DNA from: a virus
Taxonomy: Duplodnaviria; Heunggongvirae; Uroviricota; Caudoviricetes
DNA length: 64,000 bases
Strand: one strand, 5' to 3'
IMG/VR virus record: IMGVR_UViG_3300032007_000003
Span: 248,029-312,028 of that record
The first letter of the stretch is position 1. The number at the start of each line of letters is the position of its first letter. Shown here one piece after another: positions 2,116-15,727 of the stretch. The position numbers and the translations under genes were made by a program. Under the pieces are notes generated by a model. It had not been told where the DNA came from, did no database searches, and was given only the letters and a program-made list of their open reading frames with translations.

Positions 2116-2535
2116 ATGAGTATAGAGAAAAGTTTCGATGGTGCTTTCAAACGAATGAGAGACCGCAATTGGGAGAAGATATATGTGTTGGTAGATATAC
2201 ACGACACCATATTAAAAGCTTGCTACAATGACGAGGAAACGCATCAGTGGTTTCCATATGCTAAAGAGGCTTTGGACATCATGAGTCATGCGCAGCAAAT
2301 ATCGCTCATTCTCTGGACATCAACCTATGATGACATCATCGCTGACTATCTCAAGCACTTTAAGGAGAATGGCATCACATTCGACATGGTGAACATAAAC
2401 CATGAGACAAAGAACACAGATTTGTCTTGTTTCGATGAAAAGACCTATTTCAATGTGGGTATCGATGCAGAAACAGATTGGGAAATATTGTATAACTACC
2501 TTGTTGAAGGAATTAGACTTGGTAAATTTAAGTAA
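2116..2535 (+). CDS. hypothetical protein
   Basis: 139-aa ORF in the gap between tRNA clusters. No confident motif was seen. Confidence 0.45.
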   Translation: MSIEKSFDGAFKRMRDRNWEKIYVLVDIHDTILKACYNDEETHQWFPYAKEALDIMSHAQQISLILWTSTYDDIIADYLKHFKENGITFDMVNINHETKNTDLSCFDEKTYFNVGIDAETDWEILYNYLVEGIRLGKFK

Positions 2536-2735
2536 TATGACTAGTAGTGACTTTGAAATAGCAAATACAAGAATTCATAGTATACTGACAGAGATTGATT
2601 TACATGAGAATAAAATTGTAGAGCTTAAACATGAATTAGAAGATATTAATAATTTCTTAAAAAAATAAAGCATACACAGCTCACCACTGTGGTCAATTCG
2701 AAAGGATTGTGGTTGAGAAACCTATGCTTTTAAAT

Positions 2736-2818
2736 TGTGGAGTTGGGGAGTAGACAAACCCAAGGGTCTGTAAAACCCTCGCCATTTGGCTTCGTAAGTG
2801 CAAATCTTACCTCCACAA
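2736..2818 (+). tRNA. tRNA-Tyr(GTA), type II
   Basis: Acceptor TGTGGAG/CTCCACA. Anticodon stem AGGGT/ACCCT with loop CTGTAAA. Variable arm GCCATTTGGC. T-arm GTAAG-TGCAAAT-CTTAC. Confidence 0.65.
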
Positions 2819-2828
2819 CAAAATAAAT

Positions 2829-2909
2829 CTAGGTGTAACTGGTAATAGGTTTCCAACTGCATTTGGAATGCAGGCGTAATGCATGGGGGTTCGAGTCCCT
2901 TCGCCTAGA
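2829..2909 (+). tRNA. non-canonical type-II tRNA-like gene (anticodon arm TTCCAA-CTGCAT-TTGGAA)
   Basis: Acceptor CTAGGTG/CGCCTAG, a canonical T-arm and a variable arm with a TGCA/TGCA stem. The anticodon arm is a 6-bp stem with a 6-nt loop, or alternatively a 5-bp stem with an 8-nt loop. A paralog lies at 3329-3410. Confidence 0.4.
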
Positions 2910-2942
2910 CAAAGGAATCTTGCAGCAATAGGTATAAGCATC

Positions 2943-3011
2943 AGGCATGTAGCTCAATGGTTAGAGCCTTGGATTTTACCAAGAGATTAGGGTTCGACTC
3001 CCTACGTATCT
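2943..3011 (+). tRNA. tRNA-Lys(TTT)
   Basis: D-arm TAGCTCAATGGTTAGAGC. Anticodon stem CTTGG/CCAAG with loop ATTTTAC. T-arm TAGGGTTCGACTCCCTA. Confidence 0.65.
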
Positions 3012-3039
3012 TTGTTTAAAGGATTCCGATTTTTAACAT

Positions 3040-3113
3040 GGTGGTTGTAGCTCAGTTGGTAGAGTACCAGATTGTGGCTCTGAGGGTCATGGGTTCGAAT
3101 CCCATCTTCCACC
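3040..3113 (+). tRNA. tRNA-His(GTG)
   Basis: An extra G-1 pairs with discriminator C73. D-arm GCTCAGTTGGTAGAGT. Anticodon loop TTGTGGC. T-arm ATGGGTTCGAATCCCAT. Confidence 0.65.
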
Positions 3114-3129
3114 CAAAAAAAAGTTATCA

Positions 3130-3167
3130 AAAAATTTGGAATTTAATTTTTTTTTGTATATCTTTGC
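3130..3167 (+). promoter_or_regulatory. conserved promoter copy upstream of the tRNA-like element
   Basis: AAAATTTGGAATTTAATTTTTTTTTTGTATATCTTTGCA. Confidence 0.5.
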
Positions 3168-3196
3168 AAAGTATTTCATAGGCAACAAATACTAAA

Positions 3197-3323
3197 GGAA
3201 ACATACAGCAAGTATTAATAGGTTATAGCATTAAACTGATAATTTAAGGGTCGTTGGTTCGAGTCCAACCCTCCCCACAAAAAATTAAACTTGGGGAGGT
3301 AGCTAAGATGGATAAATGTTTCC
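3197..3323 (+). ncRNA. permuted tRNA-like element (3' half Ile-GAT-like, then 5' acceptor, closed by GGAAACA...TGTTTCC)
   Basis: Order: motif GGAAACATACAGCAAGTAT; anticodon arm TTAAA-CTGATAA-TTTAA; T-arm GTTGGTTCGAGTCCAAC; 3' acceptor CCTCCCC. A 16-nt loop and the matching 5' acceptor GGGGAGG plus a D-arm-like TAGCTAAGATGG come next, before TGTTTCC. Confidence 0.35.
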
Positions 3324-3328
3324 GAAAA

Positions 3329-3410
3329 TAGGGGAGTAACTGGTAATCGGTTTCCAACTGCATTTGGGGTGCAGGCCTTAGTCGGCATGCGGGTTCGAGT
3401 CCCGTTTCCC
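3329..3410 (+). tRNA. non-canonical type-II tRNA-like gene, paralog of 2829-2909
   Basis: Acceptor AGGGGAG/TTCCCCT. The D-arm ACTGGTAATCGGT and anticodon arm TTCCAA-CTGCAT-TTGGGG match the first copy. T-arm GCGGGTTCGAGTCCCGT. Confidence 0.4.
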
Positions 3411-3465
3411 CTACAAGTTGATGTAAATCAATAAATTACATAAATAGTATAGAGTGTTTTGAATT

Positions 3466-4509
3466 TTGGTTGATTTTTATGAAAGTTCGGCTATATATTA
3501 TATAGAAATGTATAATTATATGGATGAATTAATAAGTAAAATCAGGAAAATGAAATTTGAACAAGGGTGTTCAAATTCTGATATTTCACTTGCGCTAGGT
3601 GTAACAATGGAGAAAATAAAAAGGGTTACTTGCAAGAGTTATGATGAAATACTCAAAAGAAAAGAAACAAAGGAAAAAGCAGAGGAAGAGTTTGTCGAAT
3701 TAGTCAAAAAATATCTTCCACTTTCAAACTCGTTAAATCATTTGTGTAATAACTTAGGTTTAAGAGGTGTGGATGGCTATTATAAGAAGTTAAAAAGAAT
3801 AATAAAAGAATATAACTTGTCAACAGAGCATTTTGGTAGTATTAAGCTATCTAATAATGGCGGTAGTAGAAATATGTACACTGCAATGTCTGATGACGAA
3901 TTCTTTGTAGAAAATTCTAATCGTTATGGAGCATCGATTATCAAAAGACTAGTAGATGGTGGCTATAAGGAATATAAATGCGAGGGAGAAAATTGTGGAA
4001 TTAACGAATGGAATGGAAAGCCATTAAGATTGCAAGTTCATCATATAAATGGAGACCATCACGATAATAGAATAGAAAATTTACAACTATTATGTCCTAA
4101 TTGCCATACACAAACAGATACTTATGCAAGAAACAATATTGCTAAAACAAATAGTTTTAAAATTACAGATAGGGTTAACGAAATATTAACTGGTTCTGAA
4201 AGTTCTTTTAAACCAAAAGATATTGAAGAAATAAAAAAGGAAATATTACCGCCAAAAGAAAAAAAATATTGTCAAAACTGTGGTAAAGAAATAAAAGGTG
4301 ATGGTGAAAAATATTGTTCTCCAGAATGTGCTGAAAAAGCTAGGAGAAAATTTGAAGTCACATCAGAGCAACTTATAAAGGATTTTAAAGAAATTAAGTC
4401 GTTTACTGGTGTTGGAAAAAAATACAATGTTAGTGATAATGCGATAAAAAGAAGAACCAAAAAACTTGGAATATATGATGAAATAAGGCAATTCATCACT
4501 CCAAGGTAA
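3466..4509 (+). CDS. HNH homing endonuclease (paralog 1)
   Basis: 'HHINGDHHDNRIENLQLLCPNCH' is an HNH motif. There are C-terminal CxxC pairs and an N-terminal HTH-like region. The true start is uncertain; the track starts at a TTG. Confidence 0.7.
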   Translation: MVDFYESSAIYYIEMYNYMDELISKIRKMKFEQGCSNSDISLALGVTMEKIKRVTCKSYDEILKRKETKEKAEEEFVELVKKYLPLSNSLNHLCNNLGLRGVDGYYKKLKRIIKEYNLSTEHFGSIKLSNNGGSRNMYTAMSDDEFFVENSNRYGASIIKRLVDGGYKEYKCEGENCGINEWNGKPLRLQVHHINGDHHDNRIENLQLLCPNCHTQTDTYARNNIAKTNSFKITDRVNEILTGSESSFKPKDIEEIKKEILPPKEKKYCQNCGKEIKGDGEKYCSPECAEKARRKFEVTSEQLIKDFKEIKSFTGVGKKYNVSDNAIKRRTKKLGIYDEIRQFITPR

Positions 4510-4523
4510 AGACATTTGATGTT

Positions 4524-4853
4524 ATGGGTGAATATAGGAAAATCACAAAGGAAGACATTAATTTTCCAAAATATTGTCTCTTTTTCATAAAAAAAATACA
4601 AGAGGCTATCGATAAGTCAAAAAATGACTTGAGTTATGTGGAATTCTTAAAGGTAGAAGTTGAGACAACTTATCCATATTGTTCTGATGCCTTTGATTTG
4701 ATAGCAAAGACATTTACTAGGAAGGGTCTTGAATTGAGAACTCCAACGTTTAAGATGGATAAGGTAGATGGAATACCACATTATCTATACAAGTGGGGCG
4801 TAAGGAAGGAGGTTGATTACGATGACCTCCCTTTTGACTATGATGATTGGTAA
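4524..4853 (+). CDS. hypothetical protein
   Basis: 109-aa ORF with an acidic C-terminus. Confidence 0.4.
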   Translation: MGEYRKITKEDINFPKYCLFFIKKIQEAIDKSKNDLSYVEFLKVEVETTYPYCSDAFDLIAKTFTRKGLELRTPTFKMDKVDGIPHYLYKWGVRKEVDYDDLPFDYDDW

Positions 4854-4868
4854 AGAAATAATATACTT

Positions 4869-4957
4869 GGGAACTCACAGCAAGTTTAAAATGGATAATT
4901 TTTTATTTGACCAAAATGAAAATAGATAGTTCGAGCCTATCAAAGTTATAGTTCCCT
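4869..4957 (+). ncRNA. motif-initiated structured element with a T-arm-like hairpin
   Basis: GGGAACTCACAGCAAGTTT ... GATAG-TTCGAGC-CTATC ... TATAGTTCCC-TTTT. The terminal stem is GGGAACT/AGTTCCC. It is homologous to 39308-39414. Confidence 0.35.
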
Positions 4958-5012
4958 TTTAATTGAATAACATTTATAATAATAAAATAGTGATTTTTTA
5001 AGAAAAAAAGTT

Positions 5013-6044
5013 ATGAAGAAAATTCTTTTAATGTTGGCACTGCTTAGTGCCGTAGTGAGTGCGAATGCACAGATTGCAACTGAGAATAGCAATGCTTTGG
5101 ATAACATTAGCTTTGGAGTGACAGCAGGTGTTTCTACACCGCTTGATTTCAACTCAATGTTTCCACTTAACACAAACGTTGGTTTGAAACTTCAGAAGGA
5201 TTTCACACCTTATTTTGGTTTGCAAGTTGAGGGCGTTGCTTTCCTTAACGACAACCATTTCAGTGACCTCAAAACCGCAGTAAAGGCTACTAATGTAGGC
5301 GTGAATGGTGTTTTCAACCTTTCTAATATCTTTGGTGGATATAGAGGTACTCCACGTGTATTCGAGGTTAGTACTGTGACTGGTATTGGTTGGCTACATA
5401 CATGGGACACACCAAACAACTTCTTGACAGCGAAGACTGGTCTTGACTTGGCTTTCAACCTTGGCAAGAAAAAGGCAAGTTCGATTGTAATTACTCCAGC
5501 AGTATATTGGAATCTGAACAAGTTCGGTAATATCTACTTTGATAAGCGTGGTTCACAGCTTGCTATCAATGTATCGTACATTTACCACTTCAAGACAAGC
5601 AATGGAACACATCACTTTAAGACTTATGACATTGGTGCAATGATTGGTGAGATTGACCGTTTGAATGGTGCATTGTCAGAGTGTGAGAGTAGAGAGTCAA
5701 AGGTGATTGAGAAGATTGTTGAGGTTCCAGTTACAAATGCTGAGACAGCAACAGTCGTAACTGATAACGGTGAAAAATGGGTTGTATCATTTGCAAACGC
5801 AAGTGCAAGTCTTACTGACGAAGCTAAGTTCGTTCTCAATGGTGTTGGTGAGGATGCTATCGTGGATATCGTAGCAACTGCATCACCAAGTGGTACAAAG
5901 GCTTTCAATCAGAAGCTTTCTGAGAAGCGTGCCGAGGCTGTTGCAAACTACTTAACCAATCGTGGTGTTAAAGTAAATAGCGCAATCGGTAAGGGCGTAG
6001 ATGCTACAGCTGGTAAAACTGCTGTTGTCACAACAGCACAGTAA
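5013..6044 (+). CDS. OmpA-family outer-membrane protein (signal peptide plus C-terminal OmpA peptidoglycan-binding domain)
   Basis: Signal peptide MKKILLMLALLSAVVSANAQ. The C-terminus 'NQKLSEKRAEAVANYLTNRGV...GKG' fits the OmpA-like domain pattern. Confidence 0.55.
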   Translation: MKKILLMLALLSAVVSANAQIATENSNALDNISFGVTAGVSTPLDFNSMFPLNTNVGLKLQKDFTPYFGLQVEGVAFLNDNHFSDLKTAVKATNVGVNGVFNLSNIFGGYRGTPRVFEVSTVTGIGWLHTWDTPNNFLTAKTGLDLAFNLGKKKASSIVITPAVYWNLNKFGNIYFDKRGSQLAINVSYIYHFKTSNGTHHFKTYDIGAMIGEIDRLNGALSECESRESKVIEKIVEVPVTNAETATVVTDNGEKWVVSFANASASLTDEAKFVLNGVGEDAIVDIVATASPSGTKAFNQKLSEKRAEAVANYLTNRGVKVNSAIGKGVDATAGKTAVVTTAQ

Positions 6045-6245
6045 TTTAGCCAAGTGGCGTTAGGAGAATAAGACTATGCTTTGACGGTGGACATGCAAAA
6101 AAACCGTAAGTTTATCAGTTATCAATTTGTCTACATTCTCCTTTTCTTCAGATAACTAGATAAACGGTTGCTGCGAAAGGTAAACAGCTCACGAACTAAT
6201 ACCAAACTAGATATTGAGTTAATATCACTAAGTTAGTTCACCATT

Positions 6246-6322
6246 GTGGGATTAGTGTAGCTGGAGGGGCACGGCAGACTTCCACTCTGCAAGCATCCGA
6301 GGGTTCGATTCCCTTATCCCAC
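6246..6322 (+). tRNA. tRNA-Gly(TCC)
   Basis: Acceptor GTGGGAT/ATCCCAC. Anticodon stem GCAGA/TCTGC with loop CTTCCAC. T-arm GAGGGTTCGATTCCCTT. Confidence 0.65.
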
Positions 6323-6404
6323 TCAAAATAAAAAAAAAATGTTAGTTCGACTTGATATTTTCGCACATTTCATTATATTTATATATAGGTAATGTATATA
6401 AATT

Positions 6405-7091
6405 ATGAAAAAAGAAGATTTAAGGAAAACTATAAATAAAAGCATTGGAGAACAAAAAAAAATAATTGAAAGTACTAATTCTATTAGTTATGCTGCAAGA
6501 GAAATTTTAGGCACAGATAGCACACTTGCTAGAACTATAATTAAAGAAATATGTGAAGAACAAGGTTGGGATATACCAACTTGGTATAATAGGGTTAGAT
6601 ATTGTTTACATTGTGGAAAACCAATCATAGGTGGGGATAGTAAAAAGAAATTTTGTAATAGTTCTTGTGCAGCATCATATAATAATAAGTTAAGAAGTAC
6701 AAAAAAACACTATTGTATTAATTGTGGTAAAGAAATAAAACGAGGTAAATTTTGTAACAATACTTGTTGTGCAGAATATAATGCAAAACAATATATTGAA
6801 CGTTGGAAAAATGGGGAGGAAAATGGGTTGAGTGGCAAATATGGAATTTCGCAATATGTTAGACATTATATTTTTGAGAAAAATGATAATAAATGCGAGG
6901 TTTGTGGGAAAAGCTATATAAACCCATATACTGGATTATCTGTACTTCAGATTCATCACAAAGATGGAGATTGTACAAATAATAAGGAAGAGAATCTTCA
7001 ACTATTATGCCCAACGCATCATGCAATGACAGAAAACTTTGGAAGTAGAAATCCAAATGCAACTAGAAAGGATAATAGAATGAGATATTAA
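6405..7091 (+). CDS. HNH homing endonuclease (paralog 2)
   Basis: 'IHHKDGDCTNNKEENLQLLCPTHH' plus multiple CxxC zinc-finger pairs. Confidence 0.7.
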   Translation: MKKEDLRKTINKSIGEQKKIIESTNSISYAAREILGTDSTLARTIIKEICEEQGWDIPTWYNRVRYCLHCGKPIIGGDSKKKFCNSSCAASYNNKLRSTKKHYCINCGKEIKRGKFCNNTCCAEYNAKQYIERWKNGEENGLSGKYGISQYVRHYIFEKNDNKCEVCGKSYINPYTGLSVLQIHHKDGDCTNNKEENLQLLCPTHHAMTENFGSRNPNATRKDNRMRY

Positions 7092-7092
7092 A

Positions 7093-7164
7093 TGACGGTG
7101 TAGCACAGTGGCTAGTGCGTCTGCTTGCCATGCAGAGGACGCCAGTTCGATTCTGGTCATCGTC
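7093..7164 (+). tRNA. tRNA-Gly(GCC)
   Basis: Acceptor GACGGTG/CATCGTC. D-arm GCACAGTGGCTAGTGC. Anticodon loop TTGCCAT. T-arm GCCAGTTCGATTCTGGT. Confidence 0.7.
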
Positions 7165-7198
7165 TCACAAACAGTTGTTAAACTGAGGAGTTGCACCA

Positions 7199-7241
7199 TG
7201 CCGTGTTAAAAGGTAATATTGGTTCGAATCCAATACACGGC
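7199..7241 (+). ncRNA. tRNA-like minihelix (acceptor stem plus T-arm only)
   Basis: GCCGTGT-TAAAAGGTAAT-ATTGGTTCGAATCCAAT-ACACGGC-T. The acceptor is a perfect 7 bp with a canonical T-arm, and there are no D or anticodon arms. The element at 26787-26827 is homologous. Confidence 0.3.
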
Positions 7242-7502
7242 TCAAATAAGAATTACATGAAAAGTTGGCGTAGTAAGCCATCTTCTAAAGAGTGGGCAGA
7301 AGCAATAGATAACTATTGTGAGTTGACATTGTAAACTCAATGGTCTGCCACCTATAATGGGGTAAAAGTCCACCCTAAGATAATAGGTGTTGGCAGTATG
7401 GCGAGGTTATGAACTCAGATTTCGGTAGGACACACGAGACTCCTTTGCCTTGAAAGGGACATCAAAGTAATTCTTTCATTAATTAAACTAAAATCTAACA
7501 AT

Positions 7503-7715
7503 ATGGAAAAATGTATGCGTTGTGGTCATGAACTTATCATTGGAGGTAATTTCATGCTCAGTGAAATCAACGGAGAAATTTTGGCAGAGGAGGATGATGC
7601 AATGGTAACAAATGCATCTTGTCCTTATTGCGGAGCAAGGTATGAACTATACGACACACCACAATCTGAAAAAAAGAATTATCCATATTGGAGAGACAAC
7701 AATTTGGAGGCTTAG
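7503..7715 (+). CDS. zinc-ribbon small protein
   Basis: CxxC ... CxxC pairs (MRCGHE ... SCPYCGARYELYD). Confidence 0.4.
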   Translation: MEKCMRCGHELIIGGNFMLSEINGEILAEEDDAMVTNASCPYCGARYELYDTPQSEKKNYPYWRDNNLEA

Positions 7716-7780
7716 TTCAGTAGGTTAGAGCACCAAGCTTATACCTTGGGAGTCGGTGGTTCAAGTCCATCAGCCTCTAC
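7706..7780 (+). tRNA. tRNA-Ile(TAT)
   Basis: Acceptor GGAGGCT/AGCCTCT. D-arm GTTCAGTAGGTTAGAGC. Anticodon stem CCAAG/CTTGG with loop CTTATAC. T-arm GGTGGTTCAAGTCCATC. Confidence 0.55.
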
Positions 7781-7785
7781 TGCAA

Positions 7786-7922
7786 GGAAACATCCAGCAA
7801 ATAAAGAGTTATTATTGTAAATTGCTACCGTAACGGTTTGTGGGTTCGACTCCCACACGTCTATCTTAACGAGGGCGTTGGTGAAATTGGTAAACACGGC
7901 TATTGGAGAATAAAATGTTTCC
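7786..7922 (+). ncRNA. permuted tRNA-like element (T-arm then a Leu/Ser-like 5' half; closed by GGAAACA...TGTTTCC)
   Basis: Motif variant GGAAACATCCAGCAAATAAAG, then T-arm TGTGGGTTCGACTCCCACA, then a type-II-like 5' half GAGGGCG-TT-GGTGAAATTGGTAAACAC, then AAAATGTTTCCG-TCTTTTT. Confidence 0.3.
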
Positions 7923-8453
7923 GTCTTTTTATATTATAGTATAGCTAGAAGCAAATAAAAAATAAAATAACTGTTAAACGGAAAGTTGAAAAGGTTTCCC
8001 TACACAATAGGTAAAGAAGTTATTCACCTTTACTGAGGGATTATACGCAAAGAGAAAACACCTCGACACACTCTCCTACAATAAAATTGGAAGACACGAA
8101 CCGTAACCGTATACCCAGATGTATACGCATCCGACTTTCCTTGTGAAAGTGGCAAAAGCTTGAATCGAAAATGCAACCGTTGTGTGCTTTGGAGCTTGAT
8201 ACCGAATCAAAAATAAGCAGTGTATGATTCTATGACTTAATTTCGCTTAACAGTAACTTGCGCCTATGGGGGAATAAGTAGACCCGTATGTCTTAGGAAC
8301 ATATGTTGAAATACACGTATCAGTGCAAGTCTGATTAGGCGCACAAAAAAAGGTGCTACGACAGACTGTGGAAGCCAATTTGATAGTGGCGAGTTCGTAG
8401 AACGCTGTAGTTAAATGGAATTTGATAAACAGCCTTTTTATTAATAATTCTTA

Positions 8454-8492
8454 AAAAATTTGGTTATTCCAAATATTTTTCGTATATTTGCA
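8454..8492 (+). promoter_or_regulatory. conserved promoter copy
   Basis: AAAAATTTGGTTATTCCAAATATTTTTCGTATATTTGCA. Confidence 0.5.
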
Positions 8493-8685
8493 CAGTAATT
8501 GAAAATGTTATGGGTAGAATACTTTTTATATTGTTCGTAGCTTTTATCATGACACTTGTTGTTGTAGTTATCAATAACTACCTCAATAAGAGAAATGGTA
8601 ATACGATGTCAAGGGAAGAGAAAAGAAAGTCTTTCAATGATGACATTGAGGCTGTAGCCAAGGAAATTAAAATGAGAAGAGAAGT

Positions 8686-8970
8686 ATGATTTTATGTTAT
8701 ATAATTGGTGGTCTCATTCTTGGTGGTTTTATAGTATCACTACTATTCTCCTACGAGATTAGACACGCAATAACAATTCTAGACACAGAGCCTTTCCTTA
8801 AAGGTGATTATGCGGAAGAAGAACCATATGTTAAGTATCATAATGTTTATTGCAAGAACTGTAAATTCTTCGATGGGACAGCAACATGCCTACATGAACA
8901 TAGTTTCGGTATCTTGAGCAATCATAATACAATTATATGCAAAACAGATGGGTTCTTTGAACCAAAATAA
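8686..8970 (+). CDS. small membrane protein with C-terminal Cys cluster
   Basis: A hydrophobic N-terminal segment, then CKNCKF...CLHEH. Confidence 0.35.
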   Translation: MILCYIIGGLILGGFIVSLLFSYEIRHAITILDTEPFLKGDYAEEEPYVKYHNVYCKNCKFFDGTATCLHEHSFGILSNHNTIICKTDGFFEPK

Positions 8971-8978
8971 AACTTAAT

Positions 8979-9005
8979 GGTGGGGTAGCTCAGTTGGATA
9001 GAGCA
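8979..9005 (+). pseudogene. orphan tRNA 5' half (acceptor plus D-arm) abutting an HNH gene
   Basis: GGTGGGG-TA-GCTCAGTTGGATAGAGC is followed by an A-run and the HNH gene at 9074. No matching 3' half was found. Confidence 0.4.
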
Positions 9006-9073
9006 AAAAAAAATGTACGAAAAGTCGTAACTTTCAAAAACTCATAATATTTATATACAAATGTACGAATATT

Positions 9074-9688
9074 ATGAAATGGATAAATAAAAAAAATGAG
9101 TTAGAGCGTTTAATTAATATAGAGCATATTTCTTACGAAGAAATAGGTAGACGTTATGGTGTAAGTGGTCAAGCAGTAAAAAAAGCTGCTCAAAGGTTAG
9201 GAGTTGTAATTCCGCAAAGAAGAGAAATTAATCCAAATGAACATTTTAATAAAGGAACAGCAGAAACTACAAAATGTGTTGAATGTGGTCGTGAATTTAT
9301 AAAATATAAAAGTCATTATGGCAATTTTTGTTCAACAGAATGTGCAAGTAAATATAAACATAAAAAAGCCTATAAAGATTTCTTGGAAAATAATGAGAAA
9401 TATTGTAGGGCTAATTACACACCAAAAGCATTTAAAAAAGAAATATTAGAAGAACAAGGTGGCATTTGTCCATTGTGTAAAGGTAAACCATTTCATAATG
9501 GAAAACCATTGGTCTTTATATTAGACCATATTGATGGTAATGCTGCTAATAACAAAAGAGAAAATCTTAGAATGATTTGTCCAAATTGTGATAGCCAATT
9601 GCCAACTTACAAATCAAAAAATAAAAATGGAGCGAGAAGTTATTATCGCTATCACAAATATGATGAAAACACTAAGATAGGCAAATAA
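9074..9688 (+). CDS. HNH homing endonuclease (paralog 3)
   Basis: 'LDHIDGNAANNKRENLRMICPNCD'. The N-terminal HTH-like 'EIGRRYGVSGQAVKKAAQRLGV' is shared with paralog 4. Confidence 0.7.
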   Translation: MKWINKKNELERLINIEHISYEEIGRRYGVSGQAVKKAAQRLGVVIPQRREINPNEHFNKGTAETTKCVECGREFIKYKSHYGNFCSTECASKYKHKKAYKDFLENNEKYCRANYTPKAFKKEILEEQGGICPLCKGKPFHNGKPLVFILDHIDGNAANNKRENLRMICPNCDSQLPTYKSKNKNGARSYYRYHKYDENTKIGK

Positions 9689-9691
9689 GAT

Positions 9692-9765
9692 GCTCCCATA
9701 GCTCAGTAGATAGTAGCAACTGCCTTCTAAGCAGTAGGTCGTAGGTGCAATTCCTACTGGGAGTA
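9692..9765 (+). tRNA. tRNA-Arg(TCT)
   Basis: Acceptor GCTCCCA/TGGGAGT. Anticodon stem ACTGC/GCAGT with loop CTTCTAA. T-arm GTAGGTGCAATTCCTAC. Confidence 0.65.
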
Positions 9766-9770
9766 CGAAT

Positions 9771-9800
9771 GCGGTTCGAGTCCGCTTCAGTGACCGAGAT
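9771..9800 (+). pseudogene. orphan tRNA T-arm/3' fragment
   Basis: GCGGTTCGAGTCCGC follows directly after tRNA-Arg, with no upstream acceptor or D-arm. Confidence 0.3.
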
Positions 9801-9942
9801 TAGGTAAATTCAACAAAGCAGTGTTCGATTCTTGCTTATCTCCACACTATGAGTTTCCAATGTTAACTCGTGGGGATTATGGTTAAGTTGAGGTCAAAAA
9901 ACGGTGTATCTAGGATGCCCAGTTGCGCCTAGCTGCATCAGT

Positions 9943-10095
9943 AGGAACGTACAGCAATCATTTACTTATTTTAAAACATTGTATTAGATTCGTAAATGAA
10001 GATAAGCGAAGCACTAAATCATAATTGCGAGGCACTTATCTATGCTCTTAGGGGCGAATGTCTAGTCATGACAGTAAATTGACCGTTCCTTTTTA
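9943..10095 (+). ncRNA. motif-initiated structured element
   Basis: AGGAACGTACAGCAATCA ... CGTTCCT-TTTTAT. The terminal stem is AGGAACG/CGTTCCT, followed by a U-tract. Confidence 0.3.
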
Positions 10096-10122
10096 TTTGA
10101 AGCAATTGACACTAAATATAAT

Positions 10123-10320
10123 GGAAGCGTACAGCATGTACTTAATCATCTTATTACTAACTTAAAAGGTTTCCAATTAAACACTTGCAAGGGCAACCAG
10201 TAAGCGTACCTTTTATAAAAATTAGGCAAAGGGCTAAGTACCACATGGTTAGCTGTGAAGACAGTAGCAGTGTACATGATTAAAGGGAAAAATAGTCATA
10301 ATAAACCTACGCTTCCTTTA
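10123..10320 (+). ncRNA. motif-initiated structured element
   Basis: GGAAGCGTACAGCATGTA ... ACGCTTCC-TTTAAAA. The terminal stem is 8 bp. Confidence 0.3.
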
Positions 10321-10437
10321 AAACCATTCACGGCAAGCAGGAGTGCAGAATAGGTGGGAGGCTACGAAAGATATGACAAATGCGCAAGCTTTATCTTGAG
10401 CCATCAGTGAGATACCACTCTCCTCATACCGTGAAAT

Positions 10438-10510
10438 GCACCCATAGCTCAATGGATTAGAGCACTTGTCTACGAAGCAGGGGGTTGTAGGTTCGAGTCC
10501 TACTGGGTGT
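10438..10510 (+). tRNA. tRNA-Arg(ACG)
   Basis: Acceptor GCACCCA/TGGGTGT. D-arm GCTCAATGGATTAGAGC. Anticodon loop CTACGAA, with A34 as expected for Arg-ACG. T-arm GTAGGTTCGAGTCCTAC. Confidence 0.6.
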
Positions 10511-10535
10511 ACATACTTTTTTTAAGGAGAATGTT

Positions 10536-10898
10536 ATGATAATAGAGATAAATAAGAAACTTATTCTAAATGTATTTGAACAATGTTTAGTTGTAAAAGA
10601 TGGTAAGTTGTTCAATACAAATACTAACGAGTACGAAGCCATTGAGGGTGATAAAGTTAAGTTTTGTTTCACCAATTATTTCGGAGTAGATTGTTGGGTT
10701 AGTGGAACAGTCGATGGATATACTTGTAATAGAAGAATCAAGTTAAGGGGTATCCATGATTTATATGCAATTAAATATGGTACTAAGAAAACCATCAAGC
10801 ATTTATCTGTAATAACAGACAGCGATTGCGAAGATGATGAAGCAGATGCTTATGAGGAAATGATGAAAGCTGAATGGGAAGCTGCTTTAAGTGAATGA
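10536..10898 (+). CDS. hypothetical protein (acidic C-terminus)
   Basis: 120-aa ORF with an RBS-like AGGAGA upstream. Confidence 0.4.
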   Translation: MIIEINKKLILNVFEQCLVVKDGKLFNTNTNEYEAIEGDKVKFCFTNYFGVDCWVSGTVDGYTCNRRIKLRGIHDLYAIKYGTKKTIKHLSVITDSDCEDDEADAYEEMMKAEWEAALSE

Positions 10899-10911
10899 AA
10901 AAAAGTTCTCA

Positions 10912-10951
10912 AAAAATTTGGAATTCTCAAAAATTATCTATATCTTTGCAA
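10912..10951 (+). promoter_or_regulatory. conserved promoter copy
   Basis: AAAAAATTTGGAATTCTCAAAAATTATCTATATCTTTGCA. Confidence 0.5.
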
Positions 10952-11341
10952 TGTTATAAGGTAATAATGAAGTAAGAAATTAAGAAAAATACAAAAAAAA
11001 TTCGTCAAAAACGAAACTTTTTAAAATTAAGTATATAATTATAGAAAAAAATCAATACATTTTATATTATGATTACAGTAGTTAAAAATATCGTCAAAGC
11101 CAATGCTAGTTCATTTACATCAAGTAAGTGGAATGATGCCATTGTATCTAATTTTGATACTATGGGGAGGCAACAGCTATGCGGTTATACTGAGATATAA
11201 GATGTAAGATATTAGGCACTTACTTCACTATATATTTCCCAAGCTGTTGAAGAACTCCAAGAAAGTCTTTAGCAGCTTTTTTTGTGCTCTTTACTTTTTT
11301 TAACTTAAAAAATTTGGATAATAAAAAAAATTTTAGTATCT

Positions 11342-11698
11342 TTGCAAAAAATTGTGTTCGGAATGAAAGTAGTAGTATGTATAGAGAAGTTTGAAGGGCA
11401 CGGTCTCACATTTAGAGAGGGGGAAACATACCTTGCTAACATGGTGAATCCAAACTATTGGGTTGTTGATTCAGTAGGTGTTAAGTCAGAGGACTTCATG
11501 CTTCATTTCGAGGTCGTAGAGGAGCTTGTAGAGGACAAGACTAGTGGAAGCACAGTTGAGGTAAATAAGAAGTTTGTAGAGGAAGAGAAGGACTTCAAGG
11601 AGTTTCTTAGGAACTTCGGTTTTAAGGATGAAGACACAGAAGAGAAAGAAGAAAAAGAGTCAATACTCGATAAAATAAGGGATTACATATTTGCGTAA
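11342..11698 (+). CDS. hypothetical acidic protein
   Basis: 118-aa ORF downstream of a promoter copy at 11307-11346. Confidence 0.4.
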   Translation: MQKIVFGMKVVVCIEKFEGHGLTFREGETYLANMVNPNYWVVDSVGVKSEDFMLHFEVVEELVEDKTSGSTVEVNKKFVEEEKDFKEFLRNFGFKDEDTEEKEEKESILDKIRDYIFA

Positions 11699-11705
11699 TC
11701 CATAT

Positions 11706-11779
11706 GGGTAGGTAGCAAAGATGGTCAATGCACCAGACTGAAAATCTGGCAATGGTGGTTCGAGTCCACCCCTACCCAC
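11706..11779 (+). tRNA. tRNA-Phe(GAA)
   Basis: Acceptor GGGTAGG/CCTACCC. Anticodon stem CCAGA/TCTGG with loop CTGAAAA. T-arm GGTGGTTCGAGTCCACC. Confidence 0.7.
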
Positions 11780-11881
11780 AAAGCCAACTTCATACAGATA
11801 ATCAATCCCACTACGTAGTGCTCTAGAGAATATGGGAGATAAAACTGTTTGGACAAACACTACTAAGGTTGGCTTTATAAT

Positions 11882-11955
11882 AGTGGCGTAGCTCAGTTGG
11901 TTAGAGTATTGGCCTGTCACGCCAAGGGTCGTGGGTTCGAACCCCATCGTCACTG
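11882..11955 (+). tRNA. tRNA-Asp(GTC)
   Basis: Acceptor AGTGGCG/CGTCACT. D-arm GCTCAGTTGGTTAGAGT. Anticodon loop CTGTCAC. T-arm GTGGGTTCGAACCCCAT. Confidence 0.7.
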
Positions 11956-11975
11956 CAAAAAAATAAAACTTGAAT

Positions 11976-12052
11976 AGCCTCTGGGGATGCTAGGTGTGTC
12001 CGTCACTCTGTCACAGTGTTCAACCAGGTGGGTTCGAATCCCATAGGGGCTG
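11976..12052 (+). tRNA. tRNA-like, anticodon loop CTGTCAC (GTC), atypical D-arm
   Basis: Acceptor AGCCTCT/AGGGGCT. T-arm GTGGGTTCGAATCCCAT. The anticodon stem is weak. Confidence 0.4.
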
Positions 12053-12217
12053 CAAAGTTGGAACTATACAAAGATAATAGGAAGTTAATTAGATAGGTCT
12101 CGCAAACCTATTATTCGTGGGAAGTCGTTGTATTTGACGTTAACTTATTAATCCCCTGAACGGTCCAAACAGGAGGGGTTTATCTGAGTATTACTTGCAA
12201 GAGTTTCAACTTTATAT

Positions 12218-12288
12218 GTGGGAGTAGCTGAGAGGTTTAGCGGTAGGTTGAAGCCCTACAGACGGTGGTTCGATTCCATCTTCTCACA
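12218..12288 (+). tRNA. tRNA-Phe(GAA)-like second copy
   Basis: Acceptor GTGGGAG/TTCTCAC with G-U pairs. Anticodon stem GTAGG/CCTAC with loop TTGAAGC. T-arm GGTGGTTCGATTCCATC. Confidence 0.5.
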
Positions 12289-12384
12289 CAAAGATTAGAT
12301 TCAGAGTGGGGCATTAGATACACTACATTGGGTAATCTATATAAGTCCGCATCTGTGAGTTGCAACATCTAGTCTTTACCAAAT

Positions 12385-12463
12385 GGATGGGTATGCAAGT
12401 GGTTGAAGCAACTAGTATTACAAACTAGCATTCCACACGTAGGTTCGAATCCTACCCCATCTA
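12385..12463 (+). tRNA. tRNA-Val(TAC)
   Basis: Acceptor GGATGGG/CCCATCT. Anticodon stem CTAGT/ACTAG with loop ATTACAA. T-arm GTAGGTTCGAATCCTAC. The variable region is longer than usual. Confidence 0.55.
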
Positions 12464-12537
12464 CTAAAAAAAAATTGGTTCGAATACTTGATTTTTTCGA
12501 ACTTTTCCTTATATTTATAATAAAGAAAGTTTGAATT

Positions 12538-13137
12538 ATGAAAGTAGATTGGATTAATGAAAAAGAGACTCTTGAGAAACTTATAAAAGAAGGAGTACCA
12601 TATGAGCGTATTGGAAGACATTATGATGTGTCTGGAACTGCTGTTAAAAAAGCAGCAAAAAAATTGGGTATTGAACTTGAGCAGAAGCGAAAGATAAATC
12701 CTAATGAACATTTTAACAAGGGTACAAGTAAAGTTTGTTACTGTCTGAATTGCGGTAAAGAATTAAGTGGTTCACAAGTTAAATATTGTTCGAATGAATG
12801 CCAAATGGAATATCAAAAAACAAAAAAAATAAACGAATGGAAAGAGCATCCAGAAAGATTTTCATCAGAAAATGGGTATTCATTTATTAGAAATTATCTG
12901 TTAGAGAAGTATAACTATAAATGTGAAAAATGCGGTTGGAATGAAGAAAATCCATACACTCATTCAATACCATTAGAGGTTCATCACATAGATGGCGATT
13001 GCACAAATAATAGAGAAGAAAATCTCCAGTTATTATGCCCTAACCATCATTCTTTGACAGAAAATTTTGGTAGTAGAAATAAAAATAATAGCAAAAGATA
13101 TAAATTAATGGAATATAAAAGAAAATTACGTGAATAA
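12538..13137 (+). CDS. HNH homing endonuclease (paralog 4)
   Basis: 'VHHIDGDCTNNREENLQLLCPNHH'. The N-terminus is near-identical to paralog 3. Confidence 0.7.
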   Translation: MKVDWINEKETLEKLIKEGVPYERIGRHYDVSGTAVKKAAKKLGIELEQKRKINPNEHFNKGTSKVCYCLNCGKELSGSQVKYCSNECQMEYQKTKKINEWKEHPERFSSENGYSFIRNYLLEKYNYKCEKCGWNEENPYTHSIPLEVHHIDGDCTNNREENLQLLCPNHHSLTENFGSRNKNNSKRYKLMEYKRKLRE

Positions 13138-13145
13138 ATAATAAT

Positions 13146-13220
13146 TGGGAGTTAGCTACAATGGTTAGAGCAGGGGCCTGTTAAGCCTCAGGTTGTGGGT
13201 TCGAGTCCCACACTCCCAGC
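13146..13220 (+). tRNA. tRNA-Asn(GTT)
   Basis: Acceptor TGGGAGT/ACTCCCA (perfect). Anticodon stem GGGGC/GCCTC with loop CTGTTAA. T-arm GTGGGTTCGAGTCCCAC. Confidence 0.7.
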
Positions 13221-13224
13221 ATAC

Positions 13225-13311
13225 GTTTGGATAGTCAAGAGGTCGAAGACAACAGACTGTTAATCTGTCGTGGCGTTGTCCCCATCGTAGGTTCGAATCC
13301 TACTCCAAACG
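13225..13311 (+). tRNA. tRNA with long variable arm, anticodon loop CTGTTAA (GTT?)
   Basis: Acceptor GTTTGGA/TCCAAAC. Anticodon stem ACAGA/TCTGT. An 18-nt variable region. T-arm GTAGGTTCGAATCCTAC. The identity is ambiguous. Confidence 0.4.
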
Positions 13312-13316
13312 CAATT

Positions 13317-13399
13317 AGGAGGCTGAGAGCACTGGAAAATAGTGTGCTATGCCATTGTTGAGGTGAGCATAGAAGATGGGTTCGATTCCCATAGCCCCC
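13317..13399 (+). tRNA. tRNA-like (unresolved interior)
   Basis: Acceptor GGAGGCT/AGCCCCC at 6 of 7 pairs. T-arm GATGGGTTCGATTCCCAT. Confidence 0.25.
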
Positions 13400-13520
13400 A
13401 CTCCTAGACGTAGGGGATAAAAAGCCTAAAGATGTACATATAGGCTGTTGAGATTTTAAGTATTTTGCAGATACTATTTTAATCAACCGCTTGGGAGCTG
13501 ATAGTCCTGCGATAGTGCGA

Positions 13521-13594
13521 CTAAATATGGGCCATGTAGTGTAACGGCTAGCACTTCACATTTGCAATGTGACAGAGGGGTTCAAATCCCACAT
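13521..13594 (+). tRNA. tRNA-like, anticodon loop TTTGCAA (TGC)
   Basis: Anticodon stem TCACA/TGTGA. T-loop GGTTCAAATCC. The acceptor pairing is weak (GCCATGT/ATGTGTC with G-U pairs). Confidence 0.3.
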
Positions 13595-13612
13595 GTGTCC
13601 ACTTAGAATTTT

Positions 13613-13707
13613 GGTGGGATACCCAAGTGGTTATAAGGGGGGAGACTTGAAATCTCTTAGTTCGGTTGAGATATATCGGAGCGTGGGTTCGAATCCTACT
13701 CCCACCG
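13613..13707 (+). tRNA. tRNA-Ser(TGA), type II
   Basis: Acceptor GGTGGGA/TCCCACC (perfect). D-arm CCCAAGTGGTTATAAGGGG. Anticodon loop CTTGAAA. Long variable arm. T-arm GTGGGTTCGAATCCTAC. Confidence 0.65.
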
Positions 13708-13731
13708 CAAGTTTAACTCATAAATTGAGAA

Positions 13732-14108
13732 TAATGATAACATTTAGAGAAAGTTGTAAAACAATTTTTGCATATGAAAATGATGTTTATTTAGGGGCAA
13801 TTGTTTTATCTGATGATATCGAATACGAGAGATATAAAGACAGATGCAATGGTGATAAACTATTAAAAATTGTTCGACTTGAAACATCTAATGAGTACAC
13901 CAACAAAGGTATTGGAAGTGCTCTTATTCGTAAAGCAATAGAATTGTATCCAGAGCACAATATGTATTTGTTGTGCCATCCAATGCCAAGAGGAAATTGT
14001 GATGCAAAACATAAAACAGTTAGTGATTTGAAAAGATTCTATAGTAAATTTGGTTTTGTTTCTTGTGGGGAACTATTACCAACAATGATTAGAAAAGCTA
14101 CAATATAA
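13732..14108 (+). CDS. GNAT-family N-acetyltransferase (start reassigned downstream of tRNAs)
   Basis: 'NKGIGSALIRKAIE' resembles GNAT motif A. The N-terminal part of the tracked ORF overlaps two tRNAs, so the first in-frame ATG after them was chosen. Confidence 0.45.
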
Positions 14109-14242
14109 TCGTTCTAGAAGGACACGCTAGGAATTAAACCACCTAGAGAAGTTATCGTAGGCAACGAGAGAGCTAGTATCATTCATCAAGGCTAGCTAGC
14201 TACAGTTGTACGAGATAGTGGAATGTAAGGAATCGATTTTAT

Positions 14243-14330
14243 GGAGAGTTACCCAAGTTGGTGAAGGGGGCACATTGCTAACGTGCTAGGTCTGTAACAA
14301 GGCGCAGGGGTTCGAGTCCCTTACTCTCCG
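14243..14330 (+). tRNA. tRNA-Ser(GCT), type II
   Basis: Acceptor GGAGAGT/ACTCTCC. D-arm CCCAAGTTGGTGAAGGGGG. Anticodon loop TTGCTAA. Long variable arm. T-arm AGGGGTTCGAGTCCCTT. Confidence 0.6.
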
Positions 14331-14351
14331 CTTTTATAGTATATTAATGTT

Positions 14352-14651
14352 ATGAATGAAGCAATACCGTTTATATCAATATTCATCGTGATGTTTGGTT
14401 TAGCAATCACCATGAGAAAAAACAAGGGGGTAGCGTCAATAGGATGGGTAATCGTGGCTATCGGTGTAGCAATAAACATGATACATTGTTTTATCCTTGG
14501 AAAAATCATACTTGGTATTTTTAATATGATTTTCTCAATACTTGATGGTTTAGCGGCAGTTGCAACATATAAGGCATATAAAGAGAGTCTTCTCGAAAAT
14601 AGGGAAAAGTTTTTAAACGAAATAATGAACTACAAGAAACAAACAATATGA
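14352..14651 (+). CDS. small integral membrane protein
   Basis: Two hydrophobic segments. Confidence 0.4.
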   Translation: MNEAIPFISIFIVMFGLAITMRKNKGVASIGWVIVAIGVAINMIHCFILGKIILGIFNMIFSILDGLAAVATYKAYKESLLENREKFLNEIMNYKKQTI

Positions 14652-14893
14652 TAGTACATGATATAAAGTCAATCGTGAAAGGTATTGCACAGCTTCAGTA
14701 TATCATGTCTGGAGGAATTGCAGTCTATCATATCACATCAGTTGATGATAAGAAATATCAACTTGAGATTGACCTTAGTGATAAGAAAGATGTTGGGGAA
14801 ACAGCAGCCTTTAAGCCAACTGAAAAAGCAATCCTTCTTATGAGGTGGATTAGAAAGGCAAACGAGAATGATACATTAATTGAAATAAAATAA
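14648..14893 (+). CDS. hypothetical protein
   Basis: 81-aa ORF whose start overlaps the previous stop (ATGA). Confidence 0.4.
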   Translation: MIVHDIKSIVKGIAQLQYIMSGGIAVYHITSVDDKKYQLEIDLSDKKDVGETAAFKPTEKAILLMRWIRKANENDTLIEIK

Positions 14894-15013
14894 AAGAAAT
14901 TTAAATAAGCATATGAGAATGGTTAAAGTCATAAAACGTAAAAAGCGAAAGTGACGCTCTATAAGTTTTCAACCACGTTGAGCTTAGAGCGTTATGGAAA
15001 GATACAAACAAAT

Positions 15014-15085
15014 GCGCTTGTAGCTTAGTGGTAGAGCACGTGTCTCTTAAACATGGGGTCAAGGGTTCGAATCCCTTCAGGCGCA
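15014..15085 (+). tRNA. tRNA-Lys(CTT)
   Basis: Acceptor GCGCTTG/CAGGCGC. Anticodon loop CTCTTAA. T-arm AAGGGTTCGAATCCCTT. Confidence 0.65.
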
Positions 15086-15118
15086 CACTAATATCCGTAT
15101 GTATCTTACATACAATTT

Positions 15119-15193: not shown

Positions 15194-15204
15194 TGATTTT
15201 CTAA

Positions 15205-15294: not shown

Positions 15295-15306
15295 CAATTT
15301 TCATAT

Positions 15307-15378: not shown

Positions 15379-15401
15379 CGGAATTTATAAATGTTACGAT
15401 A

Positions 15402-15722: not shown

Positions 15723-15727
15723 CTGTT

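Follow-up and report, generated by a model that had tools for sequence, protein, structure and literature searches.

Five nuclease genes that lie among the transfer RNA (tRNA) genes of a 412-kb phage are probably free-standing homing endonuclease genes, and one of them has left an exact insertion scar in a tRNA gene that relatives of this phage retain intact. The stretch of DNA analyzed here (the window) comprises 64,000 nucleotides (nt) of the IMG/VR virus record IMGVR_UViG_3300032007_000003 (positions 248,029 to 312,028) and is part of the 412,231-bp metagenomic contig ENA ERZ27256887. It contains 42 tRNA genes, on the + strand without exception (ARAGORN), and each of the five nuclease genes, four of the HNH type (HNH1 to HNH4) and one of the GIY-YIG type, is flanked by tRNA genes, as a reading of the letters alone (the original prediction) had proposed, and encoded on the same strand. 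The proposal that these are homing endonuclease genes rests on their presence or absence at fixed sites, the exact junctions, the ancestral state, the replaced flanking alleles and the homology of their products to characterized enzymes. From these features we infer nuclease activity and homing during co-infection, and the insertion points and homology likewise point to putative target sites for the enzymes.

The original prediction had called for a comparison with related phages that lack individual nuclease genes, and such relatives exist. A scan of IMG/VR with an alignment of the HNH proteins yielded 80 loci, three of which came from syntenic contigs of 401–413 kb. Use of the 94-amino acid (aa) open reading frame (ORF) at 8686–8970 as an anchor yielded 20-kb stretches of two syntenic contigs (L084, which is the L063 contig, and L085, which is the L039 contig) plus a relative from a JGI metagenome (L086), the sole new relative returned by the metagenome scan anchored on this ORF upstream of tRNA-Arg. 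L084, L085, L086 and a further locus, L058, were compared with the window, to which their DNA is 75–97% identical, and occupancy was scored by pairwise blastn and profile searches. The HNH1 and GIY-YIG sites fall outside the coverage of L086, and for L058 the comparison covers HNH2 and the tRNA-Arg(TCT) site. A megablast comparison of window positions 3000–18000 with 50,697 phage records gave no match. Coordinates of tRNA and nuclease features below refer to the + strand of the window.

An allelic series at the tRNA-Arg(TCT) locus

For one tRNA gene, the window and its relatives together show the states before and after insertion: an empty allele, an allele into which an HNH gene has broken, and one interrupted by a nuclease gene of an unrelated kind. 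In L085 and L086, an intact tRNA-Arg(TCT) with the sequence GGTGGGGTAGCTCAGTTGGATAGAGCAACTGCC...CCTCATCA lies right after the 94-aa ORF, and the site is also empty in L058, where the tRNA directly follows a short ORF. In the window, the same position holds the first 28 nt of this tRNA, comprising the acceptor 5' strand and D-arm (8979–9006, identical to L086 at 28 of 28 positions), then 67 nt that contain an A-run and a leader or promoter-like segment (9007–9073), then the HNH3 gene (9074–9688) and, 3 nt after its stop codon, a complete but different tRNA-Arg(TCT) (9692–9766; ARAGORN, Rfam 61 bits). In L084, what remains of this tRNA is nt 1–21; a C2H2 zinc-finger nuclease ORF unrelated to HNH3 comes next, and after it another tRNA-Arg(TCT), distinct from the other two. 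A single tRNA gene has therefore been entered by two unrelated nuclease genes, whose breakpoints (nt 28 and nt 21) lie 7 nt apart. Because the 3' two-thirds of the ancestral tRNA are missing from both occupied alleles, the empty allele is ancestral and the stub is the insertion scar. The orphan 5' half had been predicted to end at 9005; it proved to be a real feature that extends to 9006, is unique in the window and has no match in 100 shuffled sequences. The neighborhood of HNH3 is the same in three independent assemblies (ENA and two Logan runs). As it is the exact 5' end of the intact tRNA of the relatives, the stub at 8979–9006 is a true scar of nuclease-gene insertion, and the proposed link between an endonuclease gene and tRNA disruption holds at this locus.

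The tRNA that follows HNH3 appears to have come with the nuclease gene. This substitute tRNA-Arg(TCT) shares its anticodon arm with the ancestral gene and differs from it in the acceptor stem, D-loop and T-arm (T-loop TGCAATT); it is 72–74% identical to the nuclease-free alleles, whereas the flanks of the locus are 91–96% identical. An HNH3 ortholog (84% identical) is found directly upstream of tRNA-Arg(TCT) in another contig, L090, where the cassette with its leader is 81% identical to that of the window at the DNA level and the flanks barely align.

The second tRNA piece that had been attributed to HNH3 has a different history. This T-arm-like hairpin (GCGG-TTCGAGT-CCGC at 9771–9785, followed by TTCAGTGACC; 9771–9800, + strand) is part of a stretch, CGAAT-GCGGTTCGAGTCCGC-TTCAGTGACC, that comes after tRNA-Arg(TCT) and is identical in the window, L084, L085 and L086. 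Its occurrence in empty alleles means that it was not made by HNH3, contrary to the original prediction, and no acceptor strand complementary to it was found nearby.

Two further observations concern this locus. The 670 nt between tRNA-Arg(TCT) and tRNA-Arg(ACG) (9767–10437) contain no ORF, are 91–96% conserved in L084, L085 and L086, are represented by only 191 nt in L058, and include the T-arm hairpin plus two of the ACAGCAA elements described below. In addition, tRNA-Arg(TCT) genes have non-canonical T-loops in the window (9692–9766, TGCAATT), in L090 (2100–2174, TTAGAGT) and in L058 (9680–9755, TTGGAAT), each of which breaks the SegB-type recognition motif GGTTCRANTCC, whereas L085 and L086, in which the site is empty, have a canonical T-loop. 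It is possible that these T-loops confer immunity to nucleases that target the T-arm, although the pattern is unclean, with L058 having such a loop and no nuclease gene at this site.

Presence and absence of nuclease genes among relatives

Three other nuclease genes also vary between collinear genomes. HNH1 (3466–4509, with ATG 3520 as its probable start) is present in L085, where its ortholog is 66.6% identical at the aa level, and absent from L084, which has ~30 nt between tRNA-Pro and the next ORF. HNH4 (12538–13137) is absent from L084, L085 and L086, in which tRNA-Val and tRNA-Asn are separated by 6–11 nt, and the GIY-YIG gene (16574–17491) is absent from L084 and L085. HNH1, HNH3, HNH4 and the GIY-YIG gene are therefore each present or absent at a fixed site. 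HNH2 (6405–7091, between tRNA-Gly(TCC) and tRNA-Gly(GCC)) is present in L084, L085, L086 and L058 as well as the window; its orthologs are 96.5% (L084 and L086), 68% (L085) and 55% (L058) identical at the aa level, always lie between two tRNA-Gly genes, and have homologs (46–49% identity) that adjoin tRNA-Gly in the unrelated contigs L031 and L051.

The relatives also contain genes of this kind that the window lacks: one of the DUF559 nuclease type before tRNA-Gln in L084 and L085, a 157-aa HNH gene before tRNA-Leu in L085, and a 268-aa ORF with helix-turn-helix (HTH) and zinc-ribbon motifs after tRNA-Asn in L084. The zinc-finger ORF at the L084 tRNA-Arg site matches phrog_15137, annotated 'endonuclease'; assignment of this ORF to DUF559/Vsr by its C-terminal 'FEYDEPKH' motif was considered and set aside, as the pairwise comparison was not significant.

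The GIY-YIG gene interrupts a tRNA-mimic RNA

The GIY-YIG gene occupies a different kind of site, a structured RNA element that mimics parts of a tRNA. The 5' part of this element (16427–16497, + strand) ends directly after the T-loop motif GGTTCGATTCC; it is followed by the cassette (16498–17491), which consists of a 76-nt leader plus the ORF and replaces 27 nt of the RNA, and then by the 3' tail of the element (17492–17535, + strand; GGAGGGG ... UGUACCC), which is collinear with L085 16317–16363. The element is uninterrupted in L084 and L085, where it reads ...GGTTCGATTCC-CACCCCCTCCGCA-linker-GGAGGGG.... The T4 enzyme SegB has GGTTCRANTCC as its recognition sequence and cleaves tRNA genes at their 3' ends (PMC2330249), and the left junction of the GIY-YIG cassette, right after GGTTCGATTCC, coincides with this core recognition motif.

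Family assignment of the nuclease genes

All five nuclease ORFs exist on the + strand where they had been predicted. For HNH1, ATG 3520 (329 aa, from the gene call on the source contig) is a likelier start than TTG 3466. The Pfam HNH_3 scores of 24.8, 20.0, 20.7 and 24.0 bits for HNH1 to HNH4 lie at or below the cut-off of 24.8, and membership of the HNH/His-Me finger group is indicated by these near-threshold scores together with matches to PHROGs HNH-endonuclease families (phrog_10822 at 7e-45 and 1.3e-17, phrog_1271 at 9e-19 and 7e-21), by a profile of the four proteins that matches the HNH domains of McrA, a group II intron maturase and Cas9 in the PDB, and by the invariant residues of the alignment (H193, N201, E204-N205-L206, C210-P211). 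The group is defined by a beta-beta-alpha metal motif that contains a catalytic His, a structural Asn and a metal-binding His or Asn and is, as a rule, held together by two pairs of Cys/His residues. HNH3 departs from the invariants of the alignment (DH...N...CPNCD).

The predicted paralogy of the four HNH genes is confirmed by pairwise identities of 50.8% over 128 aa (HNH2-HNH4) and 40.4% over 193 aa (HNH3-HNH4), with HNH1 being 40–43% identical to the other three in the HNH core only, and by a profile search of all six frames that found exactly four copies in the 64 kb. The core motif that had been quoted for all four is exact in HNH2 and HNH4, whereas HNH1 reads VHHINGDHHDNRIENLQLLCP and HNH3 reads LDHIDGNAANNKRENLRMICP. 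HNH1 has a second zinc-ribbon plus HTH module at its C-terminus, and the HTH plus zinc-ribbon module of HNH3 and HNH4 also occurs in the DUF559 nuclease of a relative, so that this DNA-binding module is shuffled among nuclease types. Outside the family, HNH4 is related to the T5-like hegA/F-TflIV protein of phage EH7 (28.6% identity over 91% of the query, E = 2e-6, tblastn), and this homology, along with its place inside a tRNA cluster, assigns it to the T5 F-Tfl type.

The GIY-YIG ORF scores 20.1 bits against Pfam GIY-YIG, which is below the cut-off of 22.6, but it also contains NUMOD3 and a C-terminal HTH (HTH_50/HTH_7), matches phrog_314 'homing endonuclease' (7.5e-27), and is 32.7% identical to annotated segB genes (E = 3e-24, tblastn), a combination that identifies it as SegB-like.

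The five cassettes also share features outside their reading frames. Each begins with an A-run and has a common ATATTTATA box 15–25 nt upstream of the ATG, and the core of the HNH3 leader, TAATATTTATATACAAATG, agrees with the GIY-YIG leader at 17 of 19 positions. The next tRNA begins 2, 3 and 8 nt after the ends of HNH2, HNH3 and HNH4, respectively.

A family-wide link between this HNH clade and tRNA genes

The association with tRNA genes extends well beyond this phage. tRNA genes are found at 58 of the 60 best viral loci for these HNH proteins, versus four of the 20 weakest HNH matches (L064–L083), and 589 of 640 tRNAs are on the nuclease strand. At 41 of the 60 loci the ORF is preceded by a same-strand tRNA whose end is no more than 150 nt away, and at 16 of the 60 the stop codon overlaps a tRNA or is followed by one that begins within 15 nt. 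For segB and the T5 enzymes, this layout has been considered as a possible means to limit expression via tRNA processing (PMC2330249). Individual sub-lineages also recur beside the same isoacceptor: HNH3-like genes occur with tRNA-Arg(TCT) in L060, L068, L057 and L090, and in unrelated contigs HNH2-like genes occur with tRNA-Gly and HNH1-like genes after tRNA-Leu(TAA). This recurrence, counted in contigs that were not de-replicated, is suggestive of isoacceptor preference.

Replaced, duplicated and remnant tRNA alleles

If homing copies flanking DNA along with a nuclease gene, the adjoining tRNA alleles should be exchanged too, and such exchange is seen around the polymorphic genes. The tRNAs that adjoin them are 50–84% identical to their counterparts in the relatives, whereas many other tRNAs are 97–100% identical. 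Replaced alleles include the tRNA-Pro at 3330, tRNA-Arg(TCT), tRNA-Val, tRNA-Asn and both tRNA-Thr(TGT) genes. Directly upstream of HNH1, the tRNA-Pro(TGG) at 3330–3414 is an aberrant 85-nt gene (called by ARAGORN, with an Rfam tRNA score of only 32 bits), while L084, which lacks HNH1, has a canonical 74-nt tRNA-Pro at this position. HNH4 lies between a replaced tRNA-Val(TAC) allele (12385–12464, 64–67% identical to L084, L085 and L086) and, 8 nt downstream, a diverged tRNA-Asn(GTT) (13146–13220, 60–84% identical to the relatives). Together with the HNH3 cassette, which is conserved in L090 between flanks that barely align, these diverged flanking alleles have the character of co-conversion.

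Duplicated tRNA genes in the window tell a related story. Its tRNA-Asp and tRNA-Phe duplicates consist of one pair of the L085/L086 type and one of the L084 type, and its two tRNA-Thr(TGT) genes are an L085-like and an L084-like allele. As the duplicates match alleles of different relatives, these duplications arise by juxtaposition of divergent alleles, a pattern which fits duplication driven by recombination and supports the original prediction to that extent.

The wider suggestion that endonuclease action could also explain the many tRNA fragments was not supported by the comparison. A tRNA-Asn 3' remnant (T-arm plus acceptor 3' strand, 19127–19151), directly after the stop codon of the ORF at 18736–19125, has no nuclease gene beside it in either genome that carries it; L085 has an intact tRNA-Ala and tRNA-Asn at this site, and the deletion is common to the window and L084.

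Two tRNA-related genes of other kinds were also observed in the window. A possible tRNA minihelix without D-arm or anticodon arm lies just after tRNA-Gly(GCC) (7203–7247; 7-bp acceptor stem GCCGUGU/ACACGGC and T-arm AUUGG-UUCGAAU-CCAAU). In addition, 28382–28458 encodes an amber-suppressor tRNA (anticodon CUA), to which ARAGORN gives the label 'Pyl'; the ORF statistics of the window gave no clear signal that TAG is read as sense.

A proposed mechanism and its alternatives

Most likely, each nuclease would cut or nick a tRNA gene or tRNA-like gene in a co-infecting relative that lacks the nuclease gene, and the break would be repaired from the nuclease-carrying genome. Repair would copy in the nuclease gene, its ~70-nt leader and the neighboring tRNA allele, which differs from the allele that was cut and is presumably immune. 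At tRNA-Arg(TCT), the left junction would have formed inside the resident tRNA after position 28, giving rise to a dead 5' stub, with the complete tRNA-Arg(TCT) 3 nt past the HNH3 stop codon replacing the lost function. The GIY-YIG gene would have entered the tRNA-mimic RNA directly after GGTTCGATTCC, the motif recognized by T4 SegB. A succession of such events between diverged relatives could account for the patchwork of replaced and duplicated tRNA alleles.

Several observations weigh against this homing model. HNH2 is present in all five genomes, so that it provides no case of gain or loss. HNH3 has D for the last metal-binding H (CPNCD) and DH for HH, and these substitutions could weaken the enzyme. 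The left junction in tRNA-Arg is unlike the product of clean homologous repair and needs an illegitimate join. Replacement of tRNA alleles also took place where none of the compared genomes has a nuclease gene, as at tRNA-Ser(TGA) (13613), and the tRNA-Asn remnant at 19127–19151 likewise lacks a nuclease neighbor. Finally, the relatives are all metagenome assemblies and the region is rich in repeats.

A possible alternative, to which we assign a minority weight, is that the nuclease genes have been domesticated, such that breaks in or near tRNA genes drive segmental amplification and turnover and thereby aid escape from host nucleases that target tRNA. SegB drives amplification of a tRNA-Tyr segment that allows phage T6 to escape Septu (PMC13096335), the window has duplicated isoacceptors near its nuclease genes (two each of Pro, Asp, Phe, Asn, Lys-CTT and Thr-TGT), and HNH2 is kept in all relatives. 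However, all but one of the five genes differ in occupancy between genomes that are nearly identical, as expected from selfish gain and loss, and the duplicates are juxtaposed divergent alleles, not one segment amplified in tandem. Domestication is compatible with the selfish-element explanation, and the two are not exclusive.

It is unlikely that the nuclease genes are passengers which accumulate in a dispensable region, with the tRNA changes being due to ordinary recombination between conserved D-arm and T-arm motifs. tRNA islands contain few genes and tolerate insertions, and both the tRNA-Asn remnant and several replaced tRNA alleles lack an adjacent nuclease gene. Passengers would not explain the tight association with tRNA genes that is specific to this HNH clade, the way in which sub-lineages from unrelated contigs keep to one isoacceptor (HNH2-like with Gly, HNH3-like with Arg-TCT, HNH1-like with Leu-TAA), the entry of two different nuclease genes within 7 nt of each other in one tRNA gene, or a GIY-YIG junction that coincides with a known SegB recognition motif.

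Nuclease genes are frequently intron-encoded, the tRNA-Arg break is near the junction of D-arm and anticodon stem, and tRNA-like genes at 17628–17754 (at the D-arm/anticodon junction) and 26174–26298 have inserts of ~50 nt; even so, it is most improbable that the stub and a downstream piece are exons of one tRNA and that HNH3 is encoded by a group I intron or lies within a split tRNA, since the tRNA-Arg(TCT) that follows HNH3 is whole and its own acceptor stem (GCTCCCA/TGGGAGT) is unable to pair with the stub GGTGGGG, the tail of the T-arm piece (TTCAGTG) is not complementary to the stub either, and no Rfam intron family matches at E <= 1. The pairing of the 5' half with the T-arm as two halves of one split tRNA was rejected on this lack of complementarity, and the group I intron on the missing Rfam intron match and the complete downstream tRNA.

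The selfish homing of free-standing nuclease genes is the preferred explanation. A broader version of it joins these observations, and we offer it tentatively, as a conjecture which we would not expect to hold in full: F-TflIV-like HNH sub-lineages would each home to one isoacceptor gene (HNH2-like to tRNA-Gly, HNH3-like to tRNA-Arg(TCT), HNH1-like to tRNA-Leu(TAA)) and travel fused to or beside a cleavage-resistant substitute tRNA, and they would be chiefly responsible for the turnover, duplication and expansion of tRNA alleles in the very large tRNA islands that huge phages carry, with a so far undescribed YrlA-like RNA family ('GGRAAC-ACAGCAAGUAU...GUUYCC') providing additional landing sites.

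A family of structured tRNA-mimic RNAs

The many fragmentary tRNA-like loci of the island had been suggested as possible products of tRNA disruption, a view that is not borne out, as many of them are conserved, repeated structured RNAs with covarying helices. In this family the two ends form an outer helix (GGRAAC/GUUYCC) that is followed by a U-run, and the motif ACAGCAAGUAU follows the 5' strand. The interior is variable, and in several copies contains a T-arm, a loop-closed acceptor-like stem and a D-arm, which is the layout of YrlA RNA. The window holds at least 11 copies (1392–1475, 3197–3325, 4869–4960, 7785–7935, 9944–10095, 10123–10320, 16427–16497 plus 17492–17535, 22419–22560, 24920–24985, 27387–27440 and 39308–39415), between which the helix sequences covary, and others occur in L041 (five at 2198–3460), L056, L058 and L090. 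Across the window and loci, ACAGCAAGUAU with a pairing partner occurs 53 times, versus 3–10 times in shuffled sequences. Far from being debris, these structured RNAs are conserved, and the GIY-YIG gene has landed in one of them.

Among Rfam families, none reaches its threshold for the ACAGCAAGUAU elements. The YrlA family (RF02553) scores 29.5 bits at 22440–22549 and 15 bits at 3246–3321 against a gathering score of 69, so the architecture is alike and the elements fall short of YrlA membership, for which this score and a nearby Ro60/TROVE gene would be expected. The unrelated viral contig L041 has a DUF2828/DUF7788 gene (3474–4886) just downstream of its five ACAGCAA elements; its product has no sequence match in the PDB and no homolog in the window, and a tblastn search with this protein, which was not exhaustive, found no Ro60-like ORF in the window.

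The copy at 3197–3325 (L084 5221–5345, L085 4635–4760) resembles a whole tRNA-Ile(GAU) with its ends moved. Its order is anticodon arm (CUGAUAA), T-arm, acceptor 3' strand, linker, acceptor 5' strand, then U8-A9 and D-stem, all closed by an 8-bp helix (GGAAACAU/AUGUUUCC), and seven of seven acceptor pairs covary (CCUCCCC/GGGGAGG in the window versus UCACGCU/GGCGUGA in L084 and L085). A promoter-like box, TTTG...TAnnTTTG, lies directly upstream. A reading of this copy as a circularly permuted tRNA gene, such as those of algae or archaea, was rejected, as an acceptor closed by a loop and ends beside the anticodon arm correspond to the YrlA-type layout. A scan for a T-arm followed by a closed acceptor hairpin gave 22 matches versus ~10 in controls, a count that is confounded by tandem paralogous tRNAs sharing an acceptor stem, the same pitfall to which the authors of the YrlA study point (PMC4201824).

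Other RNAs and genes were observed in the island. Two tRNA-like genes with an insert of ~50 nt (17628–17754 and 26174–26298; Rfam 47 and 42 bits) are not called by ARAGORN, and in the former the insert separates the D-arm from the anticodon arm and has at its end ACAGCAA, the motif of the RNA family. A transfer-messenger RNA (tmRNA) gene at 23576–24030 scores 56.9 bits, which is above the Rfam gathering score, and a GOLLD-like RNA at 25733–26159 (79 bits, gathering score 150, E = 5e-19) has a tRNA-like gene directly after it. Protein genes within the island include those of an OmpA-family protein with a Bacteroidota-style signal peptide (5013–6044) and an endonuclease V homolog (19294–19986, Pfam 30 bits). 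TTTG/TAnnTTTG promoter-like boxes precede several units, and judging from these promoter motifs the host of the phage is probably a member of the Bacteroidota.

Comparison with known systems

The behavior of these genes is already known from T4 and T5, and what this locus adds is a particularly clear allelic series, which shows directly how selfish nucleases truncate, replace and duplicate the tRNA genes of a huge phage. The paradigm set by T4 SegB and T5 F-Tfl is thereby carried over to 400-kb phages, probably of Bacteroidota, and there is a hint that HNH lineages, in contrast to SegB, could be restricted to a single isoacceptor. Annotators should also take note that a good many of the 'tRNA fragments' of such islands represent conserved structured RNAs. 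In the case of the RNA family, the likeness to YrlA (PMC4201824) is an outer helix of the two ends that encloses a T-arm, a loop-closed acceptor-like stem and a D-arm; unlike YrlA, the elements described here have their own 5' motif ACAGCAAGUAU and occur in at least 11 copies within the window, and one copy keeps a full anticodon arm.

A 2026 report describes SegB as widely associated with tRNA genes and as a driver of tRNA segment amplification (PMC13096335). The GIY-YIG gene resembles T4 SegB in its domain set, its 32.7% identity, its location in a tRNA cluster on the tRNA strand, its absence from close relatives, and a junction right after GGTTCGATTCC that matches GGTTCRANTCC. Unlike segB, it is found in a 412-kb phage with what appear to be Bacteroidota-type promoter motifs and interrupts a tRNA-mimic RNA instead of lying between tRNA genes, and its cleavage activity is putative.

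The nucleases of the T5 tRNA region were described in 2004 (cited in PMC2330249 and PMC5714182). Like the F-Tfl enzymes, the HNH proteins of the window are free-standing His-Me/HNH nucleases encoded among tRNA genes, and the EH7 F-TflIV gene that HNH4 matches sits between tRNA-Ser and tRNA-Tyr. They differ from F-Tfl in that HNH4 is only 28.6% identical, in their N-terminal HTH plus zinc-ribbon module, and in the presence of four HNH paralogs within 10 kb.

The intronless homing of T4 mobE and the seg genes (PMC2790892; PMC10448857) is a further parallel: the nuclease gene adjoins its presumed target, the allele of the carrier has diverged, flanking genes are replaced alongside, and nuclease genes lie at the boundaries of exchanged segments. 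Unlike the T4 examples, the flanking markers in this phage are tRNA genes, and at one site the target itself has been truncated and functionally replaced.

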